Made by a program: the position numbers and the translations under genes. A stretch of DNA of 23,815 bases, taken from IMG/VR virus record IMGVR_UViG_2850796239_000008, one strand, 5' to 3'. This DNA is from a virus (lineage: Duplodnaviria > Heunggongvirae > Uroviricota > Caudoviricetes). Within the stretch, counting starts at the first letter, position 1, and each line of letters begins with the position of its first letter. Shown here one piece after another: positions 1 through 23,815 of this stretch. The notes beneath the pieces are model-generated. The model saw nothing but the letters and a program-made list of their open reading frames with translations, ran no database searches and was not told the DNA's origin.

Positions 1-480
1 TTAAGAACAACGTTTGCAGGATATCGTCACGATGGTGACCCAACGCGATCTTCGTCGCCCCAGTTCCGTTGCGGTGCGATAAAGGATACCGCGACGTAGC
101 CGAGAACACAGTGAGCAAGTGGTTTTGCCCTCTGGAATCTTCTCTTTCACGATACCGTAAGTGTTCTCTTCAACAATCTTGTACTCAACGCCCAGCTTTT
201 CAAGATACTCGGGCAGAACGTGTTCCGGGAAGCCCGGTTGCTTTTGATCGAGGTTAACAGCCACCAGCGAAAAATTGATTGGCGCGCTTTGCTGCAAATT
301 GCGCAGAATCTCCAGCATGGTATAGCTGTCTTTACCCCCGGAGAGGCAAACCATGATGCGATCGCCTTCTTCAATCATATTGAAGTCAGCAATGGCTTCG
401 CCCACGTTACGACGCAGACGTTTTTGTAATTTGTTCAGGTTGTATTGTTCTTTCTTTGTAATTTGTTGATTTTCTTGCAT
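1..480 (-). CDS. ttcA: tRNA 2-thiocytidine synthetase TtcA, 5' portion only; frame breaks after ...TATELG and the gene continues beyond the window edge
   Basis: ATG at 478-480; PP-loop motif SGGKDS ([13 protein letters not shown]). After ...YRTATELG the listed frame reads RRRSRWV...stop at 1-3, while the alternate frame reads [19 protein letters not shown], typical of this ATPase family. Break is at the C-run 58-61. Confidence 0.85.
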
Positions 481-531: not shown

Positions 532-1767
532 CTACGATAACCGCGCATTCAACATGGCTATCTGTTCGTCGTTCATGTCATCAATCCACATACCGTAAAT
601 TTCATACACCATTTGCGCAGTTTCATGCCCCATCTGGCTGGCTATAAATGCCGGGTTCGCTCCTGCCGTCAACAGCCAGCAGGCAAAAGTATGTCGCGTA
701 TGGTACGGATTACGGCGGCGAATACCAGCACGTTTTACTGCTGCATTCCATCTTGCACCCAAACTGCTTACCGAGTAATAAGGTTTCTGTTTTTCGTTAC
801 ACACCCTGGGCATGAAAACAAAATGCAGTTTTTGCTTTTCAGTTCTGCCGTACTCCCGATGATAAAAAGTGATTTCGCTTTTGCGATGATGCCCGGTCAG
901 TTTGTATTGCTCCTTCAGTGCTTCAAGAGCCGGCTGCAGTAATGTTACCGTCCGGATCCCGGCATTTGTTTTTGGGGGACCGAACATATCAAGTATCGTC
1001 AGGTTTCTTCTGACATTCACAATTCCCTTCTCGAAATCCACATCCTCCCACGCCAGAGCTGCCAGTTCCCCGTGACGAAGCCCGGAGTAAACGGCAAATT
1101 TCCACAAGTTTTGGCTCTGTCCTTTTTCACTTTCCATTAATGCATTGAATTCTGTTTTAGATAACGGGTCAGGCTTTATTCTGTTTCGCTGTAATTTTTT
1201 TACTCCTTCAAATGGTTTGGTTGATATAAATCCCGACTGATACGCAAAACGTAACAACGAACAGAGCAGGGCGATATAGTTATCAACTGTGCGCACGGTT
1301 CTTCCTTTTTTGTTGGATCTTGGATTATCTAGGTAAAGCGTTTCTCCATGCAGCAGTTCATTCCGGTAGTTTAAGATATCGCTATAACGAATATGCGATA
1401 TCGGGGTACTCTCACAAATTATTATCCTGAGTGTTTTTAATTGTGATTTCGTTTTCTTCATTGTGTTTGTTGTTAACTCTGTCTCTTTAATTTTTGTCCA
1501 GATATCACAAAGCTCCCCGAATGTTTTTATGACCCTCGTTGTCACCATTTTTGCCCCAGTGCTGGACTGGGGAAAACGTCTTAAATACTCAAATTCACCG
1601 GAACTGATTTCATGAACTATCAACGCTCTTAAATTCCCGGCCTTTTTAATGTTACTGTTAGTAATCTCCCAGCCTTTCAATGTTTCCCGACATCGTTTTC
1701 CTCGAAACATGAACCAGATGCGAATGTATTTACCTCGAATCTCGACACCTGTTGGTAATTTAGACAT
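532..1767 (-). CDS. intR: Phage tyrosine integrase (Rac-type, 411 aa)
   Basis: 411-aa ORF directly next to ttcA; C-terminal catalytic region with HTRHTFACWLL and MGHETAQMVYEIYG (R..H-x-x-R..Y signature); ATG at 1765-1767, stop TAG at 532-534. Confidence 0.9.
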   Translation of the reverse strand: MSKLPTGVEIRGKYIRIWFMFRGKRCRETLKGWEITNSNIKKAGNLRALIVHEISSGEFEYLRRFPQSSTGAKMVTTRVIKTFGELCDIWTKIKETELTTNTMKKTKSQLKTLRIIICESTPISHIRYSDILNYRNELLHGETLYLDNPRSNKKGRTVRTVDNYIALLCSLLRFAYQSGFISTKPFEGVKKLQRNRIKPDPLSKTEFNALMESEKGQSQNLWKFAVYSGLRHGELAALAWEDVDFEKGIVNVRRNLTILDMFGPPKTNAGIRTVTLLQPALEALKEQYKLTGHHRKSEITFYHREYGRTEKQKLHFVFMPRVCNEKQKPYYSVSSLGARWNAAVKRAGIRRRNPYHTRHTFACWLLTAGANPAFIASQMGHETAQMVYEIYGMWIDDMNDEQIAMLNARLS

Positions 1768-1768
1768 A

Positions 1769-1984
1769 TCATGAGTCTTTGATAAACTGATTTATCTTCG
1801 GATAGTTGTACCAGATAATCCCTCGCTTACTGTCTGGCTTCCCTAAAGGAGATACTCGTTTGAAGTGGAAGCCTTCCACCCAACAGTTCTGGCGGTATGC
1901 TTCAATTTGTCTGGCACCCAGACCAGTGCGAAGCATCAGGCCGTATTCAACCATCCACTCTTCATTAAAGATTACTTGTGCCAT
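1769..1984 (-). CDS. xisR: Excisionase-like small protein (71 aa from ATG; in-frame TTG at 2008 gives 79 aa)
   Basis: Small ORF immediately upstream of the integrase with a 1-nt gap; RBS AGAGGTG 4-5 nt before the ATG at 1982-1984; product [32 protein letters not shown]... resembles the prophage excisionase-like family as I recall it. Confidence 0.6.
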
Positions 1985-2083
1985 CGCATCACCTCTGGCA
2001 GGCGCCAATGTTAGGCTGAAATTGACGCCCGATGTTGATTATTAATAATCAGCTATGAAGTTTTAATTTGAATACAATGCAAT

Positions 2084-2272
2084 TCACGAGGACTGAAGTT
2101 TCTCGCAATTAAAATTTATCAGTTTTACTTTCTGCTCTCTGGAAACGCCTGCTTCTTTTTCCCCTGAGAGCATTTTTTCGCATTCTGATTTCGTTAGTTT
2201 TGTCTTTGAGTATCTTGTCCAGCTGGCAGGAGAACCACCTTCCTTTTCAATAGTGGCTGTAATTTTATACAT
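2084..2272 (-). CDS. Small prophage early protein, 62 aa (possibly YdaC/DUF1187-like)
   Basis: ATG preceded by GGAGGT at 5 nt; the longer ORF in the track starts at a TTG. Family assignment is from memory only. Confidence 0.5.
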   Translation of the reverse strand: MYKITATIEKEGGSPASWTRYSKTKLTKSECEKMLSGEKEAGVSREQKVKLINFNCEKLQSS

Positions 2273-2322
2273 GAACACCTCCATTAATATTTTCAAAAAC
2301 CGTGTCCAAAATGCACTTGGTT

Positions 2323-3420
2323 TTACACCGGAATATTCTCATCGTATCCTGCTTGTTGCGTTTCGTTTTGTGTTTGTGGATCCGGGAATGCATATTCAAC
2401 GCCTTCCAGTTCAATCCATAGTGCATTACGACCAGCTTTGATTGTCGGCCAGTCCATACCTTTGATTCTTTCCCATGAGCGGGAGGTGAATGTTTTTTCC
2501 AGCAAATCAGCTTTTGCGCGTTTGGCGTCGTTACTGGTGCCCCCATGGTGCTTGTTGAGCAACTCGATAATTTCATCAAGTGCGATTTCTTTTGCACGCT
2601 TTTCTTTTAGCCATGTCGGTGTACCGTCGTTGGCAAATAATTCACTGTTATCCCGTGAGGTATCGATGCCGAGGTGTTCACCTCCCAGGTTAAGAAACTC
2701 GATATGAGGAAGAAAGTTTTTAAATGTTGGGTTTGAAAATACCTGTCCATCAATACGGGTGGAGCGATCTTTTAGTATTCTGGCGGTGCGCCACACCTGA
2801 CCGGTTTCTATGTTCATTTGCTTCTCCATCTGGATCAGGATGGAGGGTTCATAACCGGTTTCTGTTTCTGCTTTCATTTTTATACCGGTTTTTGCCAACT
2901 GGCGTTTGCCATCATCACCTTCGAAAAAGTCATACTCATATCCTGCACGCCCGCACATAATAATGTGCGCCTGACTGTTAACAAATCGATCGGTAAAGCG
3001 TCGCCACTCCTGTTTGAGCCACGCCCAGTCTGAAAATTCCAGTCCTCGTTTACGGTTTCGGCGTCTGGCATACTCGTCGCATAATCCGGTCCAGAAGTGA
3101 CTGATGGAGTCGATGATCATTACGGAACCGCTGCTTTCCGCTTCATTAATGGCTTCAAGCAGATCAACAAACGAGCGGGTTTTTGCCGTAAATAATTCGA
3201 TATTTTCCGCATCAAAGCGGGGTTTAACCCAGTCAGAGCCTGTTTCTGTGTCCAGAAACATTACCGGGCGGTTACCAGCTTCAATTCCCCGTTGCCGCAT
3301 AAGCATTACCAGACCAATAGCCAGTTCGCTTGCTGTGTAGGTTTTGCCGTCGCCAGCAAACCCCATAATTCCTGCTTTTAGATAGGCCTGTGTGTTTATT
3401 GCTCGTTGAAAAAGCGCCAT
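2323..3420 (-). CDS. RecA-fold ATPase, AAA_24/Sak4-like phage recombination protein (365 aa)
   Basis: Walker A GFAGDGKTYTA, Walker B-like VMIIDSISHF; GGAGGA RBS 9 nt upstream; sits where a lambdoid phage carries its recombinase. Confidence 0.65.
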   Translation of the reverse strand: MALFQRAINTQAYLKAGIMGFAGDGKTYTASELAIGLVMLMRQRGIEAGNRPVMFLDTETGSDWVKPRFDAENIELFTAKTRSFVDLLEAINEAESSGSVMIIDSISHFWTGLCDEYARRRNRKRGLEFSDWAWLKQEWRRFTDRFVNSQAHIIMCGRAGYEYDFFEGDDGKRQLAKTGIKMKAETETGYEPSILIQMEKQMNIETGQVWRTARILKDRSTRIDGQVFSNPTFKNFLPHIEFLNLGGEHLGIDTSRDNSELFANDGTPTWLKEKRAKEIALDEIIELLNKHHGGTSNDAKRAKADLLEKTFTSRSWERIKGMDWPTIKAGRNALWIELEGVEYAFPDPQTQNETQQAGYDENIPV

Positions 3421-3425
3421 AGATT

Positions 3426-3722
3426 TTAGTCCTCCAAATCAATATCAACCTGGTGGTGGGCAATGGTTTCAGCCATGTACCGGATGTGTTCTGCCATGCG
3501 CTCCTGAAACTCAACATCATCATCAAATGCGTGGCTGATTGCCTGTTTATTGGCACCGTGGCGTTGCAAATGGTCGATGCAGAGCGATTCAAACAGGTGC
3601 TGAGGCAGACCTTTTTCCAGGTCGTCCGCCAGTTCCGTTTCTTTTTCTTCACGAACGATCTGCTGGTAGTGGCGAGCCCATGCCATTTCTTCAATACGAT
3701 CAAAAATCGGGTAAGCGCTCAT
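3426..3722 (-). CDS. Hypothetical acidic protein, 98 aa
   Basis: ATG at 3720-3722 (a GTG lies 3 nt upstream); stop lies 3 nt before the Sak4-like start, so tightly coupled in the operon. No recognisable motif. Confidence 0.5.
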
Positions 3723-5640
3723 CACTGGTCACTCCAAAATTTTCAAGCTTGTTGGCAATCATCATTGCGATGTCAGGGATTGCAGGCGCATAGGCTATGC
3801 ACGCAGGATTCGCACATAAACCGTAAACCGCCGCAATCAACACCTGTTTTTTCCAGTTGAGTTCATCTTCGCCAGTTTCATTATTGCTATCATTATGCTG
3901 ATCGCTGCCAGCGTTCTCCGGTAACAAATCATCAGCTTTTTCCGTTTTCTTCGGCTCTTCTTCCTGTGCTTCATCTGGTTTTTTTTCGTCAAAAGTTTCC
4001 TGATAAGTTGCGTCTCCCATCACCGCGCCACAGTCAGGGCAGTTATCCTCGCCAGTCTGATTGCAGGGTGTTCCCTCCTCCGGTTCGCTGTTCTGGTGCT
4101 GTTTATCTTCAGTCTGTCGCACTTCATTTTCCGTTTTTTTGACTTCATTTGAGGAGATATGATGACCGGGAATCCATTTCGAATCATTCGGGTCGCTAAT
4201 CCCTTCAACAAATTCTCCGCGAGAGGCAGCCAGTAATTTGTCTGCATCGACAGGATTTTTGGGCGGAATGTTTTTCCGGGCTTCATGGAGTTCTGTCCGC
4301 AGTTTCTGATATTTCGCATCAACAGCATTTACCTGTGACTGAGCATCCAGCGGCTGCGTGTCCTGATGATGTTCAGTTGCATCCGGTTCCACTGTTTCAG
4401 CCGTTGCCTGTTCATCTGCCATTGCGCAAGATGGTTGCGGTTTTTCTTCATCATCCTGTTTTCCTTCTTCTGTTACACGTTGCGGCATCGGGGCAGAGGA
4501 GCGACCGCAGGCAATATCCACGATTTCCGGATCAGGGTTGGCATGATCGGTTTCAGTCAGTACCTTGTTCAGATATTCAGTGACGTGCGCGGGGATGACC
4601 TCGATACCAATCGGTGCTTCTTTCACTGACGCAACCACGATGGCGCGGGAATAATCCATCCCGCCAGGCATGGTGATGAATTTGTCGCGGAAAACAGAAA
4701 AGGGCGGTTTATTTTCAGCGATAATTTCCTCGACACGTTTAGCGTGTGCCGGATGAAGGTTATAAATATCCACGTCCATTGAACGGGCCAGTACGCCAGT
4801 GGCTACGTCGCGCGCCAGCGACGTCAGATCGTGGACGAAACCTTCGCCGCGATCGGTGAGGTTCCCGCCGCCAGCATTAGCACCGGAAGCCGTGCGAGTG
4901 ATACGCGAAACACGATTTCCTTTCATCCACTCTTTTGTCAGCAGACCGCGATCGGTGTAGTTGGCATCCAGATATGCTTCGAAAAAAGCAGTCATCAGTC
5001 CCAGATTTGAATTACCAGGATTAGGGAAAACTTTGTCAGTATCACGCACGAGTTTGTGGAGGTCGCGAATCTCCAGCGGGTCGAGCAGACTGGTTTTATG
5101 CGAAACAGCCAGAGCAGTAACAGCCGGTAGTTCTTCATCCCGAGCAATGTGTAATGCCTGGAGTTCGTCGCGTGAAACGTGCGTTACCGGTTTTTCGCTG
5201 CCGTGTTGCGCAAGCCAACGAATGGGCAGTTCCTGACCGGAAACTGGCAGGAGCATGTTCTCCTCAATTTCTGTCATGTCTTCGCCGTTGACGTTGGTAT
5301 TGTCAGTGCTGGCTGGTTTGTCCTGAACAGAGGGAGAAGATGCGATAAATACCATTGTGATGCCATCTTCCCCGCCTTTTTCGTAACGGTTGCAGAATTC
5401 CGTATCAAACACGCCTTCTGGTGGGAGGTCATCAACAACGGGCAAATTGACGCGAACAGGTTTTTTAAAGTCATCTTCATCGTAGCCAGCATCGTCAATC
5501 GCAACAGCACCACGGGAGATGGCAATGGATAATTTTTTCGCTTCAGCCCAGTAAAAACCGCCTTTAATACCGAGGCGTTTTCTTACTTTGTCATTTTTTG
5601 CTTCGTAATACAGTGGGTAAACTTGTTTATCGGTGCTCAT
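3700..5640 (-). CDS. Large acidic early protein, 646 aa; occupies the recE position and may resemble the non-catalytic N-terminal part of exonuclease VIII; no nuclease motif seen
   Basis: Uninterrupted 1941-nt ORF with ATG at 5638-5640; long D/E-rich low-complexity stretch (about residues 380-560); Cys cluster [14 protein letters not shown]-terminus ...[18 protein letters not shown]. Confidence 0.6.
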
Positions 5641-5663: not shown

Positions 5664-5960
5664 TCAGATTGCATAAAAGAAACGAACTGATGATGCGATA
5701 TGAGAGAGTTCTTTCAGTCGTTGATAACTGATACCGTATTTCTTGTCAGCCTCTTCAATGCGAGCTGTGAGTAATGCAATTTCTTTAATGGCACATACAC
5801 AACAATCAAATGTTCCCAGAACGTAACCGTCATCAATAATTACCGTGACGTTTTCTTTTTGGGAAATCTGAATGAAACTATGTAATGTATTCCCACATTT
5901 AAATTCGGCGAGAGAATCGTTAATAACATCAAGTTCAATTTCACATTCAATAATGCTCAT
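5664..5960 (-). CDS. Hypothetical protein, 98 aa
   Basis: Internal ATG at 5958-5960 has RBS AAGGAA 7 nt upstream; the upstream ATG at 6008 has none. Product starts MSIIECEIELDV... Confidence 0.5.
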   Translation of the reverse strand: MSIIECEIELDVINDSLAEFKCGNTLHSFIQISQKENVTVIIDDGYVLGTFDCCVCAIKEIALLTARIEEADKKYGISYQRLKELSHIASSVRFFYAI

Positions 5961-6034
5961 TGCTGTTTCCTTTTTTAAGGTTGAGTGAATCCCTGCCATT
6001 GCTGGCATAAATTCAGTTTCGAATATTCAGTTAA

Positions 6035-6322
6035 TTAAAGTTCGTGTGCCATCTTGTCTTTTTCGGCACAAGCTGCACTGCAATATTTTCGTTTCTTTCT
6101 GGCAATCATGTTTCCATGCATATAAATAAGCTCGCCAGTAAAAGCTTTTTCAGGTAAAAACTGTTTATTGCAGAGATGGTAATCACATTGTATTAAATCC
6201 AGGTCACCTTTTTGCTGGAGAATTTTTCTGATTCTCCACAGCCATTTTTTAATCCCGGTATGACTGATGGTCTGCCTGAGGGCAGGTGTAAAACAATAAT
6301 CAAGCATGGGGTTCATATCCAT
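6035..6322 (-). CDS. Hypothetical Cys-containing small protein, 95 aa
   Basis: ATG at 6320-6322 with GGAG 4-5 nt upstream; basic patch RKKRKYCSAAC and CDYHLC suggest a possible zinc ribbon. Confidence 0.45.
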   Translation of the reverse strand: MDMNPMLDYCFTPALRQTISHTGIKKWLWRIRKILQQKGDLDLIQCDYHLCNKQFLPEKAFTGELIYMHGNMIARKKRKYCSAACAEKDKMAHEL

Positions 6323-6332
6323 AGCTCCATTT

Positions 6333-6880
6333 TTATTTTAAGGAAAGCAACTGCTCTACGGTCATGTTTTTAATTGCGCCCCGGTTTACAAGAGTCCAGC
6401 CCTGTTTTTCCAGGTAGAACTGGAAAGTCTCCAGGGTACAGACCAGTGCGCCATCAGGAACGGTTTCGGTGAATTCGACATTGCCGAATTTGTCGAAGTG
6501 AACAACCAGAGTGCGACCATCACCCGGAATCATCTTGTCAGCAGGTGGGGTGTTATTCTGGCGCAGTTCGGCCTCCATGCGGTCGAACTCAGCAATGTAG
6601 GCTTCCTTGAATGTGGCGGCTTTTTTGCCCGTGAAGCCCATCACCAGGAAAACGAAGCCGTTTTTGGTGATTTGGTAGGCGTTATAAGAATTGCCGCGGT
6701 GTTCGAATTTAACCCGCGAAAAGTTGCTGGTTAAAAATAGTTCAGAACATTCGAGGGATTCTATTTTTTGAACAACATGGTGATGCTGCTTGCCAAAAAA
6801 CTCAGCAATCGAAATAGAAGTAGTGACGGCGCGACCATTTTCGATGGTTACGTCAGGGTGAGAAAGGGTAGTAGCCATAA
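6333..6880 (-). CDS. Rha-family phage regulatory protein; the ORF is open in frame up to 7172
   Basis: Phage_pRha-type N-terminus TTSISIAEFFGKQHHHVVQKIESL right after the Met at 6878-6880 (RBS GAGGA 8 nt upstream). The upstream 97 codons are Pro/Gly/Arg-rich and look non-conserved. Confidence 0.7.
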
Positions 6881-7193
6881 TGACATCCTCAAGTGATAAG
6901 TTAATTAACTCACCAGCAGAGGTGCTAATCTCATGGGTGGTGAGACGCACAGGGTTAGCACTACCGGTCACTCGAGAACCCGGCCAGCCTTGCGGCTGCC
7001 CCGCACGCCTCACCATAATTTGAATGTGGCTGTGCATTACGCATAAAAAAACCGCTTCAGCGCGGCTATGCGCTCGAGTAACTTTCGGGGTGCTAATCCC
7101 GGCACCCGTTTTATGAGGTGCAGGTGCACTATAATTCCACCCGTTCTGGTTTTCAATAGCTACATTCAACATTTTCTCTTTCCTTTCATCACC

Positions 7194-17881: not shown

Positions 17882-18237
17882 ATGCAGTCACGATCACTTC
17901 TTCTTGACACCGGGACATGGGATATCCTGCTTGATGATACCGGAAATCTTGCCATTACTGATAATCCCCATGCGGTAGCTCAGGATGTGGCGTGTGCGTG
18001 CAGTACTTTTCTGGGGAGTGCTGGTACGACTCAACGGCTGGCATACCTTACTGGCCACGCATCCTCGGACACTGGCCCGGCACACAACTGGTGAATGCCA
18101 CTCTGCAACAGGAAGCACTTAAACTGCCGACCGTGAGCGCCGCTGTCTGCCAGGTCACAGCTGATCAAACCCGGACAGTAACAGGTGTGCTGCGTATTAC
18201 AGATACCAATAATGACATTTTTACGGTATTGCTATGA
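17882..18237 (+). pseudogene. Baseplate wedge protein (gpW/gp25-like), split by a frameshift in a G4 run
   Basis: ORFs 17882-18094 and 17992-18237 join as ...ACACSTFLGECWYDSTAGIPYW... if one G is added at 18013-18016; strong RBS CAGGAG before the ATG at 17882. Confidence 0.65.
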
Positions 18238-19475
18238 GTGAAAATAAATCTTTTTCTACCGCAGTGCCCGCTGTACAGATTTCGGATCGCGGGCTGAATG
18301 TGCCGGATGAAGCGGATATTCTGAGCGGCAGGCTTGCTGATTTTTCGGCGGCGCTGGGCGGGGCCATGAGTACCAGTCTGAGCAGTCCGCAGGGACAACT
18401 TGCATCCAGCGAAAGCGCCATTATTGCGGATAAAAACGACCAGTTGCTGTATATCGTTAACCAGATCAACCCTGACTTTTCCAGTGGTCGCTTTCAGGAT
18501 GCAATAGGCAGGATTTATTTCCTGGAGCGCCGCGGGGCCACAGGTACGACAGTAACAGCGACCTGTACCGGGCTGGTTGGCACGCTGATCCCGGCGGGCA
18601 GTATGGCGCAGGATGAGGCCGGTTATAAGTATGTCAGTCAGTCAGACGTCACTATCGGCGCATCAGGGCAGGTTGATGCGGTATTTCTGAATTTGTCCAC
18701 CGGCCCCGTCGGCTGTCCTGTGGGGACGCTGAATAAAATTTATAAGGCAATACCTGGCTGGTCAGGTGTCACTAACGCCAGTGCCGGTGTGCCGGGCAGC
18801 GATGAGGAAACCCGTGCGGACTTTGAAAACCGCCGACGTAATTCAGTTGCCCGTAATGCCCGGAATATTCTGGAAGCCATCCGGGGTGAAATACTCTCCA
18901 CGGTGGAAAACGTGGTGGATGTTTACGTCACCCATAATCCGAAAAAAACAGAACAAAAAGCCGGAGTCAGTCAGTATCCATTAACACCCGGTTCGCTTTA
19001 TGTTGGCGTGTACGGCGGCAGCCCGGCAGATATCGCGGCGGCCATCTGGCGTAAGGCTCCGCCGGGTATTGATATGAATGGCAACACAACGTTCACTGTT
19101 GCAGATAAGGAGTACGATCCGCCGTATCCTGAATACGTGATCAGCTGGCAGACACTCAAACCCGTCAGTCTGCATGTCAGTGTGACGCTGAAAAAAAGTG
19201 ACTACCTGCCTTCAGATATTACCCGACAGGTACAGCAATCCGTGCTGGACGCATTTAATGGTACAGATGGTGGTCTGCGGGCAAGGGTTGCCTCTGTTGT
19301 CTCTGCCGGGCGCTACTATGCCGGCATTTACAAAACCGATCCGGAACATATTGATATTCTGGGCCTTACTGTGAGCCGTGACGGTTCGTCATGGACAACG
19401 GCTGTCACTTTCGGGATAGATGAGATTCCGGTTCTGGATGTGTCGGATATCAGTGTGAAACTCCAGGAGGCATAA
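18234..19475 (+). CDS. Baseplate J-like protein, 413 aa
   Basis: Size and position after the W-like gene; ATGA overlap with the upstream stop. Confidence 0.75.
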   Translation: MSENKSFSTAVPAVQISDRGLNVPDEADILSGRLADFSAALGGAMSTSLSSPQGQLASSESAIIADKNDQLLYIVNQINPDFSSGRFQDAIGRIYFLERRGATGTTVTATCTGLVGTLIPAGSMAQDEAGYKYVSQSDVTIGASGQVDAVFLNLSTGPVGCPVGTLNKIYKAIPGWSGVTNASAGVPGSDEETRADFENRRRNSVARNARNILEAIRGEILSTVENVVDVYVTHNPKKTEQKAGVSQYPLTPGSLYVGVYGGSPADIAAAIWRKAPPGIDMNGNTTFTVADKEYDPPYPEYVISWQTLKPVSLHVSVTLKKSDYLPSDITRQVQQSVLDAFNGTDGGLRARVASVVSAGRYYAGIYKTDPEHIDILGLTVSRDGSSWTTAVTFGIDEIPVLDVSDISVKLQEA

Positions 19476-19476
19476 C

Positions 19477-20082
19477 GTGCAGAATGTGGCTGCCACTGTG
19501 CTTGCGCAGTATGCTGCCAGCCCCCGACTCAATGCCCTCATTAACAGCTTTAACGCAGCGCTTTCCCCCGACAGTTTTATCAGTGATTTTTATGGTCTTA
19601 TCTGGAACATCGATACCGCAGAAAAGTATGGTCTTGATGTCTGGGGAAAGATTGTGGGTGTCAGTCGCCGGCTGACGGTAAAGGACGATTTTAATTACCT
19701 GGGCTTCAGCGAGTCTAGGATGGACACCCCGGTAATGGATGATCCCTGTCCGTTTAATCAGGCACCGTTTTACAACGGAAAATCGGATACCCGGACTGTT
19801 GACCTGTCTGATGCTGTATACCGGCGGCTGATACTGATGAAAGCCATGTCGAACATTACTGACTGTTCCGTTCCGGATATTAACCGGATGCTGAGATTTA
19901 TGTTCGGAAAAAAACGCCGGGCTTATGTTCTGAATAATGGTGGATTGAGGATGAGTTACATCTTTGAGTCCGCGCTCTCGTTGGCAGAACTGGCGATTAT
20001 CCAGTCGTCGGGTGCACTGCCATCCCCGCCGGGTGTTTATGTTTCAGTAGTTTTAAAGGAGTCCCGTAATGAAGGCCAGTGA
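19477..20082 (+). CDS. Baseplate/tail protein I-like, 201 aa (GTG start)
   Basis: GTG at 19477 with AGGAGG at 8-nt spacing; position between the J-like gene and the fibre gene. Confidence 0.6.
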
Positions 20083-21301
20083 TAAACCCCGCCAGCTGGC
20101 GGTCCCCTTTGCGAGTACCGGAGATAAAAACCGTATCCCGGACAAGGCGACACAGCAGACCAGAGAGAGCGGTAATGCTGCGTATGATTCAGGTTTTCCT
20201 CCGGTGACCATGACAGCGGTCTCAGCGGGAGGTATACCGCCACACGGCAAGGATTTTAACGGTCTGATGTACGATATTACCGCAGCAATACGGTTCGCCC
20301 AGGCTGGCGGTTTGTACACGTATAATGCCGGTTTTGCGGGGGCCATTGGTGGATATGCAAAAGGAGCCATTCTCGCCGGAGTCGCAACAACAGCGGTCTG
20401 GCTGAATACCACAGACGATAACCTGACCGATCCTGAAGGCTCCGACAGTGCGGGCTGGGTAAATCTTCTTGAGGATCCGAAAAGGATATTCCTGCGGCAG
20501 AAGAACAATCTGTCAGACCTTCAGAATAAAGGGACGGCACGGGATAATCTTCAGGTTTACAGTAAAGAGCAGTCAGATCAACGCTATGTTCATCGGGAAG
20601 GCGATACCTTGTCCGGTGGACTTACTTTTGAAAACGACTCAACCCTTGCCTGGATTCGAAATACTGACTGGGCAAAGATTGGTTTTAAAAATAATGCCGA
20701 CAGCGATACTGATTCATACATGTGGTTTGAAACAGGTGACAACGGCAATGAGTATTTCAAATGGAGACACCGCCTCGCTGGCGGCCGGGTTAAAGACCTG
20801 ATGAATCTCAAATGGGATACACTAAATATTCTGGTTAATGCCGTCATTAATGGTTGTCTTGGAATTGGTACGACGAATGCGTTAGGTGGAAGTTCAATCG
20901 TTTTAGGAGATAACGATACCGGGTTTAAACAAAATGGCGATGGTCTGCTTGATGTTTATGCGAATGGACAGCGTGTATTTCGTTTCCAGAATGGCAGTAT
21001 CCAGAGTAATAAAGCTGTAAACGTTACAGGACGGGTAACACCGTCAGACTACGGAAACTTTGATGCCCGTTACCAGCAGCGAAATGGTGGCGTGCAGGAT
21101 GTGCGGTATGGTTATGAAATGTATTACAACCCTGGCAGCAACACCGTTTCATGGACGTTTCGCTCACCTTCGGGACACGGGCTGTCAGGGATATCGATAT
21201 CGGATACCGGCCGTAACTCAGCGGATAACGTCAACGGTGTGTATTACCGACCGCTGCAAAAACTGATTAATGGCACCTGGTATAACGTAGCGAGTATTTA
21301 A
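20069..21301 (+). CDS. Tail fibre protein (gpH-like), 410 aa
   Basis: AGGAG RBS; conserved fibre N-terminus followed by a Gly/Asn-rich distal region ([37 protein letters not shown]). Confidence 0.8.
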
Positions 21302-21303
21302 CA

Positions 21304-21849
21304 ATGTTGCATTTAAAAAATATTACTGCGGGTAATCCGAAAACCGTGGAACAATATCAGCTGACAAAACAATATGATGTCACCTGGCTTTTTTCGGAAG
21401 ACGGAAAAAACTGGTATGAAGAGCTGAAGAATTTCGCCAGCGACACAATTAAAATAACTTACACCGGAGACGGTCGCGTGGTGTGGGTCGGTAAGGATGT
21501 GACAGGCATTGAACCCCGTAACGCCAGTGTTATTGAAGTTCCTGATATTACCGCCAACCGCCGCATTACCGCGCCGGGTTACTGGTTTTACCGCAATGAT
21601 GAATTTGTCTTTGACTACAGACTCAAAGCGGAAGATGAGCGTGATGCCCTTCTGGCTCAGGTCAGTGCCCGGACAGGGGAATGGGAAGAAGACCTGCTGC
21701 TGGGGTTAATCAGCGACGAAGATAAAGAAAAGCTGAAAGCCTGTCGTATTTACGCGAAATCACTGCAGGCGATGGATTTCAGTGTCATCACAGATAAAGC
21801 CACATATAACGCCATCAACTGGCCGGAGCGTCCCGATGCCGCAGCTTAA
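21304..21849 (+). CDS. Tail fibre assembly protein (Tfa/gpG-like), 181 aa
   Basis: Starts 2 nt after the fibre stop; C-terminal Tfa-type signature ...AKSLQAMDFSVITDKATYNAINWPERP. Confidence 0.8.
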   Translation: MLHLKNITAGNPKTVEQYQLTKQYDVTWLFSEDGKNWYEELKNFASDTIKITYTGDGRVVWVGKDVTGIEPRNASVIEVPDITANRRITAPGYWFYRNDEFVFDYRLKAEDERDALLAQVSARTGEWEEDLLLGLISDEDKEKLKACRIYAKSLQAMDFSVITDKATYNAINWPERPDAAA

Positions 21850-23113
21850 AGGTGTGATTAAAACGCCCACGGGAGAACCGCTGGACGGCGCAACCATTAC
21901 ACTAACCTCCATACACAACCGTGCAGGGATTCTGAAAAGTGTTTTCAGCCATGTCACCACACAGAACGGGGAATATGACTTCCCCGTTCTGCCGGGTGTG
22001 TACAGCGTTCGCCTGACACAAAGCACACGGCGCCTTTCAGAAATCGGTGTCATCCGCGTTTATGAAGATTCAACGGACGGTTCGCTGAATGATTTTCTGG
22101 GCGCAACTGATATTGACCTGCGTCCGGAATCCCTGAAGAAATTCGAAGAGCTGGCGCAACAGGCGCAGCAGAGTGCCGGGAGCGCAGCCGGAAACGCACG
22201 GCAGACGGCGCAGGATGTGACGGCAGCCGCAACGGCCCGTGATGATGCACAACGTTTTGCGGAGAAAGCCCGACAGGATGCAACCGTCACAGCTGAGAAC
22301 AGAAAGGCCACAGCGGAAGACGTGAAAAGCACGGGGAAAAACGCCGTCTTATCCGGTCAGCGTGCACAGGCAGCCGCAGGTTATGCCCGCGCAGCAGAAC
22401 AGGCCAAAAATGACATTGATGCTGCGCTGACCGGCACTCTGAAAACGGCTAACCATCTGTCTGAAATCGCAGCAGCAGGCGAAAAGGCACAACAGAAGTC
22501 CCGGGATAATCTGGGGCTGAAAAGTGCGGCCACGATGGAAGCACAGAGCGACATTTACGACCGGACAAAAGGCCGTCTGGCGATACCCGGCGCATTCGGC
22601 TTTGGGCGTGCTTTTCTGCCTGAAGATGTTATCCGTTTTGACACTAAGAGTGATTTCCTGGCCTGGGTAAGGAATGCGCTGCCAGGTGAATATTCCGTTG
22701 CTGGCCCCTACGACATCATCATACCCGACACACGGTTTGAAGGGGTGCTCAGCATCCGGTGGACTGATGCACGCCCTGAGACAACAGAACCGAGGTACAG
22801 AGCCAAATCCCTTACTTTTTACGGCATTAACGGCCCCATTTATCACACCCGCTACTGCTACTGGCCCATATCCAGACTGACTGGCTGGGTGAAAATAAAT
22901 ATAACCACAGAAGATATTATTTACAGAATCGTGGCGAGCTCTGTCCGCAACAGATGGGGAGACCCTGACATTGGCGGGCTGATTATTGCTGCGTACCAGG
23001 GAGAAGCTGACGGTGATAAAGTCATCAGACTTGTCAGGGGCGGTCATACAGAGGCTCACGACTGGGACCGGTGGGGATTTCAGTGCCCAGTACTCCCACC
23101 GGAACGTATATAG
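21836..23113 (+). CDS. Side-tail-fibre-like protein, 425 aa: Stf-type N-terminal domain with an atypical C-terminal half
   Basis: N-terminus ...GVYSVRLTQS...GVIRVYEDSTDGSLNDFLGATDIDLRPESLKKFEEL matches the prophage side-fibre N-domain pattern; Ala/Gln-rich coiled segment; C-terminal about 180 aa lack fibre repeats. Confidence 0.7.
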   Translation: MPQLKGVIKTPTGEPLDGATITLTSIHNRAGILKSVFSHVTTQNGEYDFPVLPGVYSVRLTQSTRRLSEIGVIRVYEDSTDGSLNDFLGATDIDLRPESLKKFEELAQQAQQSAGSAAGNARQTAQDVTAAATARDDAQRFAEKARQDATVTAENRKATAEDVKSTGKNAVLSGQRAQAAAGYARAAEQAKNDIDAALTGTLKTANHLSEIAAAGEKAQQKSRDNLGLKSAATMEAQSDIYDRTKGRLAIPGAFGFGRAFLPEDVIRFDTKSDFLAWVRNALPGEYSVAGPYDIIIPDTRFEGVLSIRWTDARPETTEPRYRAKSLTFYGINGPIYHTRYCYWPISRLTGWVKINITTEDIIYRIVASSVRNRWGDPDIGGLIIAAYQGEADGDKVIRLVRGGHTEAHDWDRWGFQCPVLPPERI

Positions 23114-23251
23114 CATCCCCACAATTTTTCATTACGGGATGTTCAGAGCATTCATTACCGGGGTCATATTGCGCCCTGTCCGGGGTGCCGGATGCTCATG
23201 TCTCTGGCGCAATGCCCGGGCTTTTTATTCGCACATCGTGAGGAATGCACC

Positions 23252-23815
23252 GTGGAAATTAAAAAAATCATTAATCCCCGTTATACCGAAAGTGGCGCAG
23301 TAGACTGTGACGTTTTTTTTGACGACAGGGACCAGGCAGTCCCCTACACAGCCACCGCTGATGATGTCGCACCGACGGGTCAGCGAATCTGGCAGGAACT
23401 GCAAAGTGGCAAATGGGGTGAGATAGCCCCATTCACTGTGACACCAGAAATGCTGGAAGCGGCCAGAGAGGCCAGACGTCAGGAAATTGAAGCATGGCGC
23501 ACAGAACAGGAGGCGAAGCCGTTCACGTTTGAATGGAACGGTCGTATCTGGAATGCTGGTCCCGACTCACTGGGCCGCCTGTCCCCGGTAGTCATGCTGG
23601 CAAAATCTGTCACAGCACAAACACATATGGCGTGGAGCGATGCCGATAATCAGCAGGTGAAACTGTCGATGCCGGAACTGGAAGAACTGGCGGCAGCAAT
23701 GGTGCAGGCGCAGGTCGATCGCAACGATGAGATTTATCGCCGTCAGCGGGAGCTGAAGGAAGAGCTGAATAGTCTGAAGGATTTGAATTCGGTTAGGAAT
23801 TTTATCGTGGAATAA
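23252..23815 (+). CDS. Hypothetical protein, 187 aa from GTG; possible fibre-associated chaperone or accessory protein
   Basis: GTG at 23252 with GAGGAA RBS at 8 nt (in-frame ATGs at 23192/23198 lack an RBS); position after the fibre gene; stop at the window end. Confidence 0.45.
   Translation: MEIKKIINPRYTESGAVDCDVFFDDRDQAVPYTATADDVAPTGQRIWQELQSGKWGEIAPFTVTPEMLEAAREARRQEIEAWRTEQEAKPFTFEWNGRIWNAGPDSLGRLSPVVMLAKSVTAQTHMAWSDADNQQVKLSMPELEELAAAMVQAQVDRNDEIYRRQRELKEELNSLKDLNSVRNFIVE

Follow-up and report, generated by a model that had tools for sequence, protein, structure and literature searches.

A Probable Gam-Centred Recombination Module with a Nuclease-Less RecE Protein and a Long AAA_24 ATPase in a Rac-Family Prophage

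Introduction

Phage recombination (Rec) modules are a source of recombineering tools and are drivers of prophage mosaicism. This report concerns the probable Rec module of a Rac-family prophage in a 23,815-nucleotide stretch of Caudoviricetes DNA (IMG/VR record IMGVR_UViG_2850796239_000008), the whole of which is called the window below. After a fragment of ttcA, a minus-strand operon of the window runs through genes for an integrase, an excisionase, and a DUF1187 protein to three open reading frames (ORFs) of 365, 98/99, and 646 amino acids (aa); past the 646-aa ORF come an ORF of 114 aa and one of the YdaE family, and upstream of these two the gene for a Rha/Ash regulator (Table 1). In the K-12 Rac prophage, the gene order is ttcA-intR-xisR-rcbA-ralR-recT-recE-racC-ydaE-kilR, and the three co-directional minus-strand ORFs occupy the ralR-recT-recE position.

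A prediction made earlier from the letters of the window alone had placed these three ORFs correctly and had stated, also correctly, that recT and recE are integrase-proximal in Rac. It proposed that the Rec module had been swapped: a Sak4-like ATPase would stand where recT would be, a RecE-like acidic protein without a nuclease motif would stand where recE would be, and an acidic protein of 98 aa would separate the two, which were seen as an uncharacterised pairing of scaffold and annealase. In the first part of this report, we describe the boundaries of the swap and the identities of its parts. In the second part, we ask which combinations of these parts occur elsewhere and how the module may work.

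The Swapped Block

The 99% identity of the integrase to IntR, the 92% identity of the rcbA product to RcbA, and the K-12 gene order together show that the prophage belongs to the Rac family and occupies the Rac attachment site. Positions 1-2295 of the window match K-12 Rac DNA at 97%, positions 2296-3866 have no K-12 Rac counterpart in the DNA comparison, and homology restarts at 3867, inside recE, at 87%. Other flanks in common with K-12 Rac are rcbA, ydaE, and ydaT, with ttcA as the attachment site. Because homology is absent between 2296 and 3866 and present on both sides, the swapped block is real and sharply bounded, with a length of ~1.57 kb; on this point the original prediction was right.

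The genes of the block are tightly packed. The 5' end of the middle gene, gam, overlaps the stop of the 646-aa ORF by 23 nucleotides, and the ATPase gene starts 5 nucleotides beyond the gam stop. A GTG start would place gam at 3426-3725, and the ATG start used by PGAP gives 3426-3722 (98 aa). A terminator scan found no strong or convincing intrinsic terminator between the three genes, and a promoter scan of the region stayed at chance level.

The alignment of positions 1-2295 with K-12 has a length of 2296, and therefore holds at least one indel. The 3' end of ttcA looks out of frame relative to the K-12 TtcA sequence. A frameshift in the gene is possible and would be in keeping with a Shigella-like genome.

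Table 1. Features of the window (positions in nucleotides; IS, insertion sequence)
Feature	Position	Strand	Basis or remark
ttcA fragment	1-480		159-aa reading frame, stop at 1-3
Rac-type integrase	532-1767	-	99% identity to K-12 IntR
Excisionase	1769-2008	-	DUF1233
rcbA/ydaC homologue, DUF1187; left flank of the swapped block	2084-2296	-	PF06688, E 2e-36; 92% identity to K-12 RcbA
AAA_24 RecA-fold ATPase, 365 aa	2323-3420	-	PF13479, E 7.5e-14
gam, lambda Gam-type (predicted RecBCD inhibitor), 98 aa	3426-3722	-	PF06064, E 8.1e-56
Nuclease-less RecE-family protein, 646 aa	3700-5640	-	PF06630, E 1.3e-36
'CANPA' tail, codons 592-646 of the 646-aa ORF	3703-3867	-	Motif conservation
114-aa ORF	5664-6008		phrog_2434; PGAP 'DNA breaking-rejoining protein' in identical locus
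YdaE-family ORF	6035-6322
279-aa ORF	6333-7172		Ash-family domain, residues 14-105; Rha regulatory domain, residues 117-200
DnaB-like helicase, two fragments	10504-11490, 12614-13201		Split by the IS3-family element
IS3-family element	~11488-12751
ORF of the IS3-family element	11552-11854		HTH_Tnp_1
ORF of the IS3-family element	11890-12708		rve
IS1 transposase ORF	14697-15200		With 15119-15394
Myovirus-type baseplate/tail genes, directly after IS1	within 14697-23815		Dit-like, Pam3 gp18-like, baseplate hub, Baseplate_J

A RecE Protein without Its Nuclease

Aligned with residues 40-585 of K-12 RecE, the 646-aa protein shows 77% identity (E = 0), and the match does not extend beyond residue 591. 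Against an 884-aa RecE variant, the identity is 86% up to the residues ...SDETGE and the divergence is complete afterwards. The suspected resemblance to the N-terminal region of RecE is thus borne out, and the family models end at a similar point: phrog_607 is matched over positions 1-622 of 883, and the NCBIfam exoVIII equivalog NF007259 over model positions 1-596 of 877, at 1061 bits and so below its cut-off of 1269. The only Pfam match is PF06630, at residues 52-189. The Pfam scan did not find the C-terminal PD-(D/E)xK 5'-3' exonuclease domain (PF12684), and a search of the Protein Data Bank (PDB) gave no sequence match at E<=1, the RecE nuclease structure 3H4R included; in a control search, full-length RecE (P0190) matched 3H4R at residues 623-884. 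The prediction that a nuclease motif is missing therefore holds. Among the window ORFs scanned against Pfam, there is no RecT or Bet either; gam and the AAA_24 ATPase gene lie downstream instead.

In place of the nuclease, the protein ends in a tail of ~55 residues (592-646; it contains IANKLENFG), and the DNA breakpoint with K-12 recE at 3867 coincides with the start of this tail. The same tail closes a 665-aa protein of an Escherichia coli R1 prophage and a 682-aa protein of the Shigella phage 75/02 Stx. When the tail was used as a phmmer query, at least 20 divergent representatives of 50%-identity clusters proved to end in the motif LTYxQQLTIAALQGLCANPA..DDIPxMA..LA; these are 25-45% identical to the window protein. 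A domain conserved so widely shows that the nuclease-less form is not a random truncation. A tblastn search of phages with the 54-aa tail found no match, even though phage 75/02 Stx encodes the tail, and low-complexity masking or the short query is probably the cause. A profile built from the tail alignment retrieved only short fragments and a few ORFs of 50-90 aa, and no new fusion partners.

The AlphaFold2 model of the protein has folded regions at residues 1-100, 120-250, and 260-390, a disordered acidic stretch at 493-591, and tail helices at 591-634. As had been predicted, the protein is acidic (118 D+E against 68 K+R, with the excess focused at residues 391-437 and 493-591) and carries a CxxC-containing cluster, C-x7-C-x2-C at C526/C534/C537. 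In comparisons with the R1 and 75/02 relatives, the ratio of nonsynonymous to synonymous divergence (dN/dS) is 0.04-0.11 in the folded N-terminal domains, 0.14-0.18 in the tail, and ~0.44 in the acidic linker. From its sequence, then, we read the 646-aa protein as the RecE N-terminal region (residues 1-591) joined to a conserved tail of ~55 aa, without the nuclease. Rather than a broken nuclease, it is a self-standing and conserved protein, with no specific tie to the ATPase. We call this form the tail-type RecE-N protein.

K-12 RecE and every other aligned relative have a zinc-ribbon CxxC...CxxC at the place of the cysteine cluster (e.g. VCTACGQSDGDNCPDCG). In the window (4030-4065, residues ~522-540), the first Cys has gone through a deletion of ~15 residues, which leaves three of the four putative ligands, and this loss is specific to the 646-aa Shigella/E. 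coli lineage. In RefSeq, the 646-aa protein widely bears the name 'exodeoxyribonuclease VIII' or 'RecE family exodeoxyribonuclease', and in one genome it is recorded as a pseudogene 'missing C-terminus'.

Gam between RecE and the ATPase

The 98-aa protein was regarded at first as an anonymous acidic separator. It is acidic indeed (23 D+E against 9 K+R), but it is not anonymous. It matches PF06064 over positions 1-97 of 98 and the solved lambda Gam structures 5MBV and 2UUZ over residues 1-97, at ~80% identity (E 2.5e-50); it also matches phrog_259, and its PGAP name in identical loci is 'host-nuclease inhibitor Gam family protein'. Neither this protein nor the ATPase has a model in NCBIfam. By all these similarities, the 98-aa protein is lambda Gam, and inhibition of RecBCD is predicted from its ~80% identity to lambda GamS. 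Since the supposed separator is lambda Gam, the module is Gam-centred.

The 365-aa ATPase

The third protein falls in the Pfam family AAA_24 (PF13479), as had been proposed, with 52.5 bits against a cut-off of 27, between the characterised Sak4 proteins of PA73 (62.9 bits) and HK620 (30 bits). Among phage families, it matches phrog_1366 at E 1e-79 and the Sak4-like phrog_124 at E 1e-8; HK620 Sak4 itself matches phrog_124 at E 1.9e-5. The Walker A motif GFAGDGKT (G20-T27), the motif DTETG (D57-G61), and the Walker B motif IIDS (D104-S105) are invariant across 30 homologues. A profile of the family found no sequence relative in the PDB. The AlphaFold2 model (pLDDT 84) has a RecA-type core at ~14-230, followed by a confident extra helical bundle (269-340) and by an acidic C-terminal tip without ordered structure; Foldseek aligns it with KaiC, RadA, Rad51, RecA, and UvsX (E 3e-7 to 1e-4), with KaiC hexamer domains as the best matches. 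The description as Sak4-like is right for the family and the RecA-like core and wrong if a classical 'core-only' Sak4 is meant, because the protein has an extra C-terminal domain. By analogy, we think that the ATPase probably works like Sak4 or is a long variant of it; we do not file it as a classical Sak4, and we treat it as a putative annealase.

The family spans Proteobacteria to Elusimicrobia and Patescibacteria and is 60-87% conserved across Proteobacteria. Its neighbours include SSB genes in some places. In Achromobacter prophages, a 73%-identical homologue is directly followed by an SSB gene, and in three more distant loci, a DUF669 gene is near the ATPase relative; DUF669 is the family of the annotated SSB adjoining Sak4 in phage PA73. 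In the window, the ORFs scanned against Pfam include no SSB. 'Replicative DNA helicase' is the annotation of some distant AAA_24 homologues, and the PADLOC defence models match none of six proteins, the ATPase included.

The C-terminal ~20 residues of the ATPase (window 2323-2385) contain YDENIPV, and the tips of homologues (P0001-P0120) often carry the acidic motif [DE][DE][ILVM]P, as in FDEDIPQ, FEDVPG, and DEEIPF. Of 107 full-length homologues, which are mutually related and hence not independent counts, 28% have this motif within their last 30 residues and none has it in residues 1-330; shuffled tails have it at a rate of 2.7% +/- 1.5%. The motif is similar to the C-terminal tip of SSB, DDDIPF (PMC5928155). 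The classical Sak4 depends on such a tip from its cognate SSB.

Combinations across Genomes and Phages

The closest proteins to the trio are found in Shigella and E. coli. Among 5426 complete E. coli genomes, 106 have the tail-type RecE-N gene, O104:H4 strains included, and only 10 have the ATPase gene; the complete trio is likewise limited to 10. In these 10 genomes, the ATPase gene occurs in 23 places, is 99.9-100% identical at the best place of each genome, and lies in prophages with different integrases. RecE-N and gam usually have another successor: the tail-type RecE-N gene overlaps gam, with Bet and Exo after them, in R1 and 75/02 Stx and also in P0243, a more divergent relative. The R1 prophage has the RecE-N-tail protein and Gam, then Bet-Exo-RalR in the place of the ATPase.

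The opposite half of the module is also found by itself. The ultraviolet-inducible Cronobacter phage phiES15 and a Cronobacter prophage share the order kil - gam - ATPase - DUF7740 - methylase - xis - int, with no RecE-N in their early-left operons. The phiES15 ATPase is 85% identical to that of the window, and its start overlaps the gam stop by one base; from kil to the methylase/xis/int genes, Gam and the ATPase are the only annotated genes of recognised Rec-module function. Divergence is strong for the Cronobacter Gam (dN 0.53), and the ATPase is conserved (dN 0.11 and 0.06, with dS saturated), so the association of Gam with the ATPase persists across gam alleles. In other words, gam is a shared linker, with the RecE-N-tail gene upstream and either Bet-Exo or the ATPase gene downstream.

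A locus of E. coli ECMA0423 and S. flexneri (L011) was first taken as a further example of Gam and ATPase without RecE-N. It was rejected because BLAST finds the RecE-N gene there, interrupted by a 96%-identical copy of the IS3-family element of the window and with a 503-bp deletion.

The RecE-N family itself has only 227 representatives in the 50%-identity library, and all relatives with a named source in this analysis are enterobacterial. In a diverse set of 62 RecE-N proteins, the PD-(D/E)xK nuclease is present in 18, a DEDD 3'-5' exonuclease (PF16473) in 12, and a RecT domain in 3; the remainder has no recognised catalytic domain. The DEDD fusions are 814-aa proteins (e.g., P0235 and P0219), and in the DEDD and RecT fusions the switch point is the same ...ETGE boundary at which the PD-(D/E)xK nuclease or the CANPA tail starts. 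In prophages with divergent CANPA-tail relatives (L057, L058/L059, and L060/L061), the gene is the last large one before the DUF1187, excisionase, and integrase genes, and no Gam, annealase, or nuclease is encoded in these operons. Some divergent relatives bear the precomputed Pfam labels YdfE_N/YdfE_C.

How the Module May Work

We think it reasonably probable, at roughly 60%, that the three genes are the Rec module of a Rac-family lambdoid early-left operon, of the class with an anti-RecBCD protein and a RecA-type annealase and without a phage nuclease or SSB, to which an accessory RecE-N protein is added. Where K-12 Rac has ralR, recT, and the 3' third of recE that encodes the nuclease, the window has, in the order of transcription, the tail that closes the RecE-N ORF, a lambda-type gam, and the gene for the 365-aa AAA_24 ATPase, a replacement attributed to an exchange of modules. 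Gam would block RecBCD, so that linear phage DNA and its ends survive; the ATPase would anneal single-stranded DNA in an ATP-dependent manner with host SSB; host nucleases would carry out the resection, as they do for nuclease-less modules of the P22/HK620 class; and the RecE-N protein would act as an accessory factor. Among lambdoid phages, the class 'anti-RecBCD + annealase, no nuclease, no SSB' comprises 46 phages, the P22 class, and a class of Rad51/RecA-type annealases is also described (Zheng et al. 2025, PMC12315714). This reading starts from the identities and boundaries of the parts, the absence of the nuclease, the purifying selection on all three ORFs, and the recurrence in other phages of both sub-units, RecE-N-tail with Gam and Gam with the ATPase. 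The position and orientation of the genes and the presence of Gam are those of the class, and the ATPase would supply the annealase. We regard protection by Gam and annealing by the ATPase as the best supported model because the ATPase occupies the Bet-Exo slot, belongs to the Pfam family of Sak4, has a RecA/RadA-like fold, and has relatives with SSB or DUF669 neighbours.

Several observations weigh against this reading. If Gam fully inhibits RecBCD, the lack of a phage exonuclease leaves no evident source of single-stranded DNA. Direct comparisons of the ATPase with HK620 Sak4 (BLASTP E 0.11, hhalign E 0.14) and with PA73 Sak4 (hhalign E 0.033 over 157 columns) are not significant, and its subfamily, phrog_1366, is unannotated. 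Lopes et al. (2010), who reported a RecA/RadA-like fold for Sak4, assigned the name only to 'core-only' proteins below 290 residues, and the window ATPase, with 365 aa and an extra domain, falls outside this limit. Across 43 loci, the neighbours of the ATPase gene are heterogeneous (DNA methylases, replication protein O, and few SSBs), Gam is found in enterics only, and neighbour censuses of these loci found no universal partner. The prophage, moreover, is damaged: an IS3-family element divides its gene for a DnaB-like helicase, and IS1 stands directly before the baseplate genes. Since there are no late-regulation, lysis, or head genes between the two, the prophage has been rearranged or has suffered a deletion. 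The RecE-N gene is interrupted by an IS in four of the 10 E. coli best places and in L011. All three ORFs of the window are intact, but the degraded prophage and the frequent disruption of sister RecE-N genes make a present-day function uncertain.

The pairing originally proposed, in which a RecE-N scaffold loads a Sak4-like ATPase to form a specific two-component recombinase like RecE/RecT, seems to us improbable. The two genes are co-linear and co-directional in one operon, which has several near-identical copies per genome and occurs in the 10 E. coli genomes and in many Shigella, and linear-linear recombination is reported to be enhanced by the N-terminal region when RecE is full-length (Fu et al. 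2012, as cited in PMC11611040). Nevertheless, each gene occurs without the other. The tail-type RecE-N gene with gam far more often precedes Bet-Exo (106 genomes against 10 with the ATPase), divergent tail-type proteins exist without Gam or an annealase, and phiES15 has Gam and the ATPase without RecE-N; the ATPase family ranges from Proteobacteria to Patescibacteria, whereas the named sources of RecE-N relatives are enterobacterial; and where RecE-N is disrupted by an IS, in about half of the copies, gam and the ATPase gene are intact. The original prediction was to be given up if the 646-aa protein had no similarity to RecE or carried an intact nuclease domain, or if the 365-aa protein did not class with AAA_24; we found the similarity, no nuclease domain, and the AAA_24 match. 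What does not stand is the dedicated pair.

Two other explanations leave the annealase out. The ATPase may be a RecA-fold motor, such as a hexameric helicase or translocase in replication restart or a counter-defence or host-takeover factor, in a variable integrase-proximal slot. Its best structural matches are KaiC hexamer domains, distant homologues are called helicases, replication protein O and DNA methylases often adjoin it in other phyla, and its extra C-terminal domain has no Sak4 counterpart. We still consider such a motor unlikely: the ATPase replaces Bet-Exo directly after gam, its gene overlaps gam translationally in phiES15, its relatives have SSB or DUF669 nearby, as characterised Sak4 proteins do, and it has no PADLOC match, while phiES15 and the Cronobacter prophage have O/P replication proteins of their own and the window prophage has its DnaB-type helicase gene, now IS-split. 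That the three ORFs are instead idle mosaic debris in a dead prophage, with a truncated recE, would agree with the split helicase gene, with IS1 before the baseplate genes, with the frequent IS insertions in sister copies, with the lost zinc-ribbon Cys, and with the PGAP flag 'incomplete, missing C-terminus' on the ORF in one genome. Here too the balance is unfavourable, and we hold this explanation to be quite unlikely, since the tail is conserved in divergent clusters, dN/dS is 0.04-0.18 for the folded RecE-N domains and the tail, ATPase dN is low where dS is saturated in the Cronobacter comparison, the three ORFs are intact, the best ATPase copies of all 10 genomes show 99.9-100% identity, and the architecture is found in viable Stx phages and in phiES15.

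The N-Terminal Region of RecE

The preferred reading, a Gam-centred Rec module with an accessory RecE-N protein, gives no role to the RecE-N protein beyond that of an accessory. Nuclease-less 'RecE-2' proteins in lambdoid early-left operons are mentioned by Zheng et al. (2025, PMC12315714), who assign no role to them. Speculatively, and with a good deal more doubt than belief, the RecE N-terminus could be an autonomous, conserved module of a fold without a PDB counterpart, coupled in cis to interchangeable effectors (PD-(D/E)xK, DEDD, RecT, or the CANPA tail), with the tail-only form working in trans with a downstream recombinase or with none, and the extended ATPase may have an SSB-tip-like acidic motif of its own, [DE][DE][ILVM]P, and so need no cognate phage SSB of the kind that classical Sak4 requires. 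If this were true, RecE-N might be a factor for targeting or tethering to DNA ends or the replisome, or a host-takeover or anti-defence factor, and the tail-only proteins would be a genetic handle on the function of the first ~590 residues of RecE, for which a boost to linear-linear recombination is the one known effect. A nuclease-less form with a conserved tail implies, in any case, a selected function of its own for the supposedly dispensable RecE N-terminus.

All parts of the module belong to known kinds, nuclease-less RecE relatives were already noted in 2025, and the combination is a variant of known Rec modules. We judge the interest to be moderate and to lie mainly in the tail-type RecE-N protein and the long AAA_24 ATPase, and less in their co-occurrence. 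Should the ATPase be an annealase that acts together with host SSB and without an exonuclease dedicated to it, it would be a compact candidate for recombineering; in the inducible phage phiES15, the long AAA_24 ATPase and Gam are the only apparent recombination genes. The annotation also calls for correction, because labels such as exonuclease or 'missing C-terminus' pseudogene are wrong for conserved nuclease-less RecE ORFs.

Comparison with Known Systems

The nearest relative by position is the RecE/RecT system of K-12 Rac. The prophage family, the ttcA site, the integrase, and the flanks are the same, and RecE shares 77% with the 646-aa protein; the window lacks the PD-(D/E)xK domain, recT, and ralR, and has the 55-aa CANPA tail, gam, and the AAA_24 ATPase instead. 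Like the window protein, the 'RecE-2' proteins (Zheng, Casjens, Davidson, Amundsen, and Smith 2025) and the YdfE_N/YdfE_C proteins are RecE-related, nuclease-less, and encoded in an early-left operon. 'RecE-2' is described as only distantly related to Rac RecE, whereas the window protein, at most a possible member of that set, is 77% identical over the shared part.

The upstream half of the module is that of a lambda Red type. In E. coli R1, the Shigella phages 75/02 Stx and POCJ13, and the O104:H4 Stx prophages, gam-bet-exo follows a tail-type RecE-N gene, and the window and R1 share the RecE-N-tail gene overlapping gam at 88% DNA identity. In the window, the ATPase replaces Bet and Exo (and RalR), and no phage exonuclease is left.

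The downstream half recalls the Sak4 modules of HK620 and PA73 (Hutinet 2018; Lopes 2010), with which the window ATPase has in common the AAA_24 family, a RecA/RadA-like fold with Walker A/B motifs, and a place in the slot that Rec modules take in lambdoid early-left operons, with an anti-RecBCD gene adjoining. Those Sak4 proteins, core-only ATP-dependent annealases of the RecA type with a cognate SSB, have 226-245 aa, whereas the window ATPase has 365 aa, with an added C-terminal helical bundle and acidic tip; it lacks an adjacent phage SSB, stands with Gam rather than Abc2, and falls in a different PHROG (1366). The closest match to this half is the early-left operon of phiES15, which shares Gam and the 85%-identical ATPase with the window and differs in having no RecE-N upstream and a diverged Gam allele.

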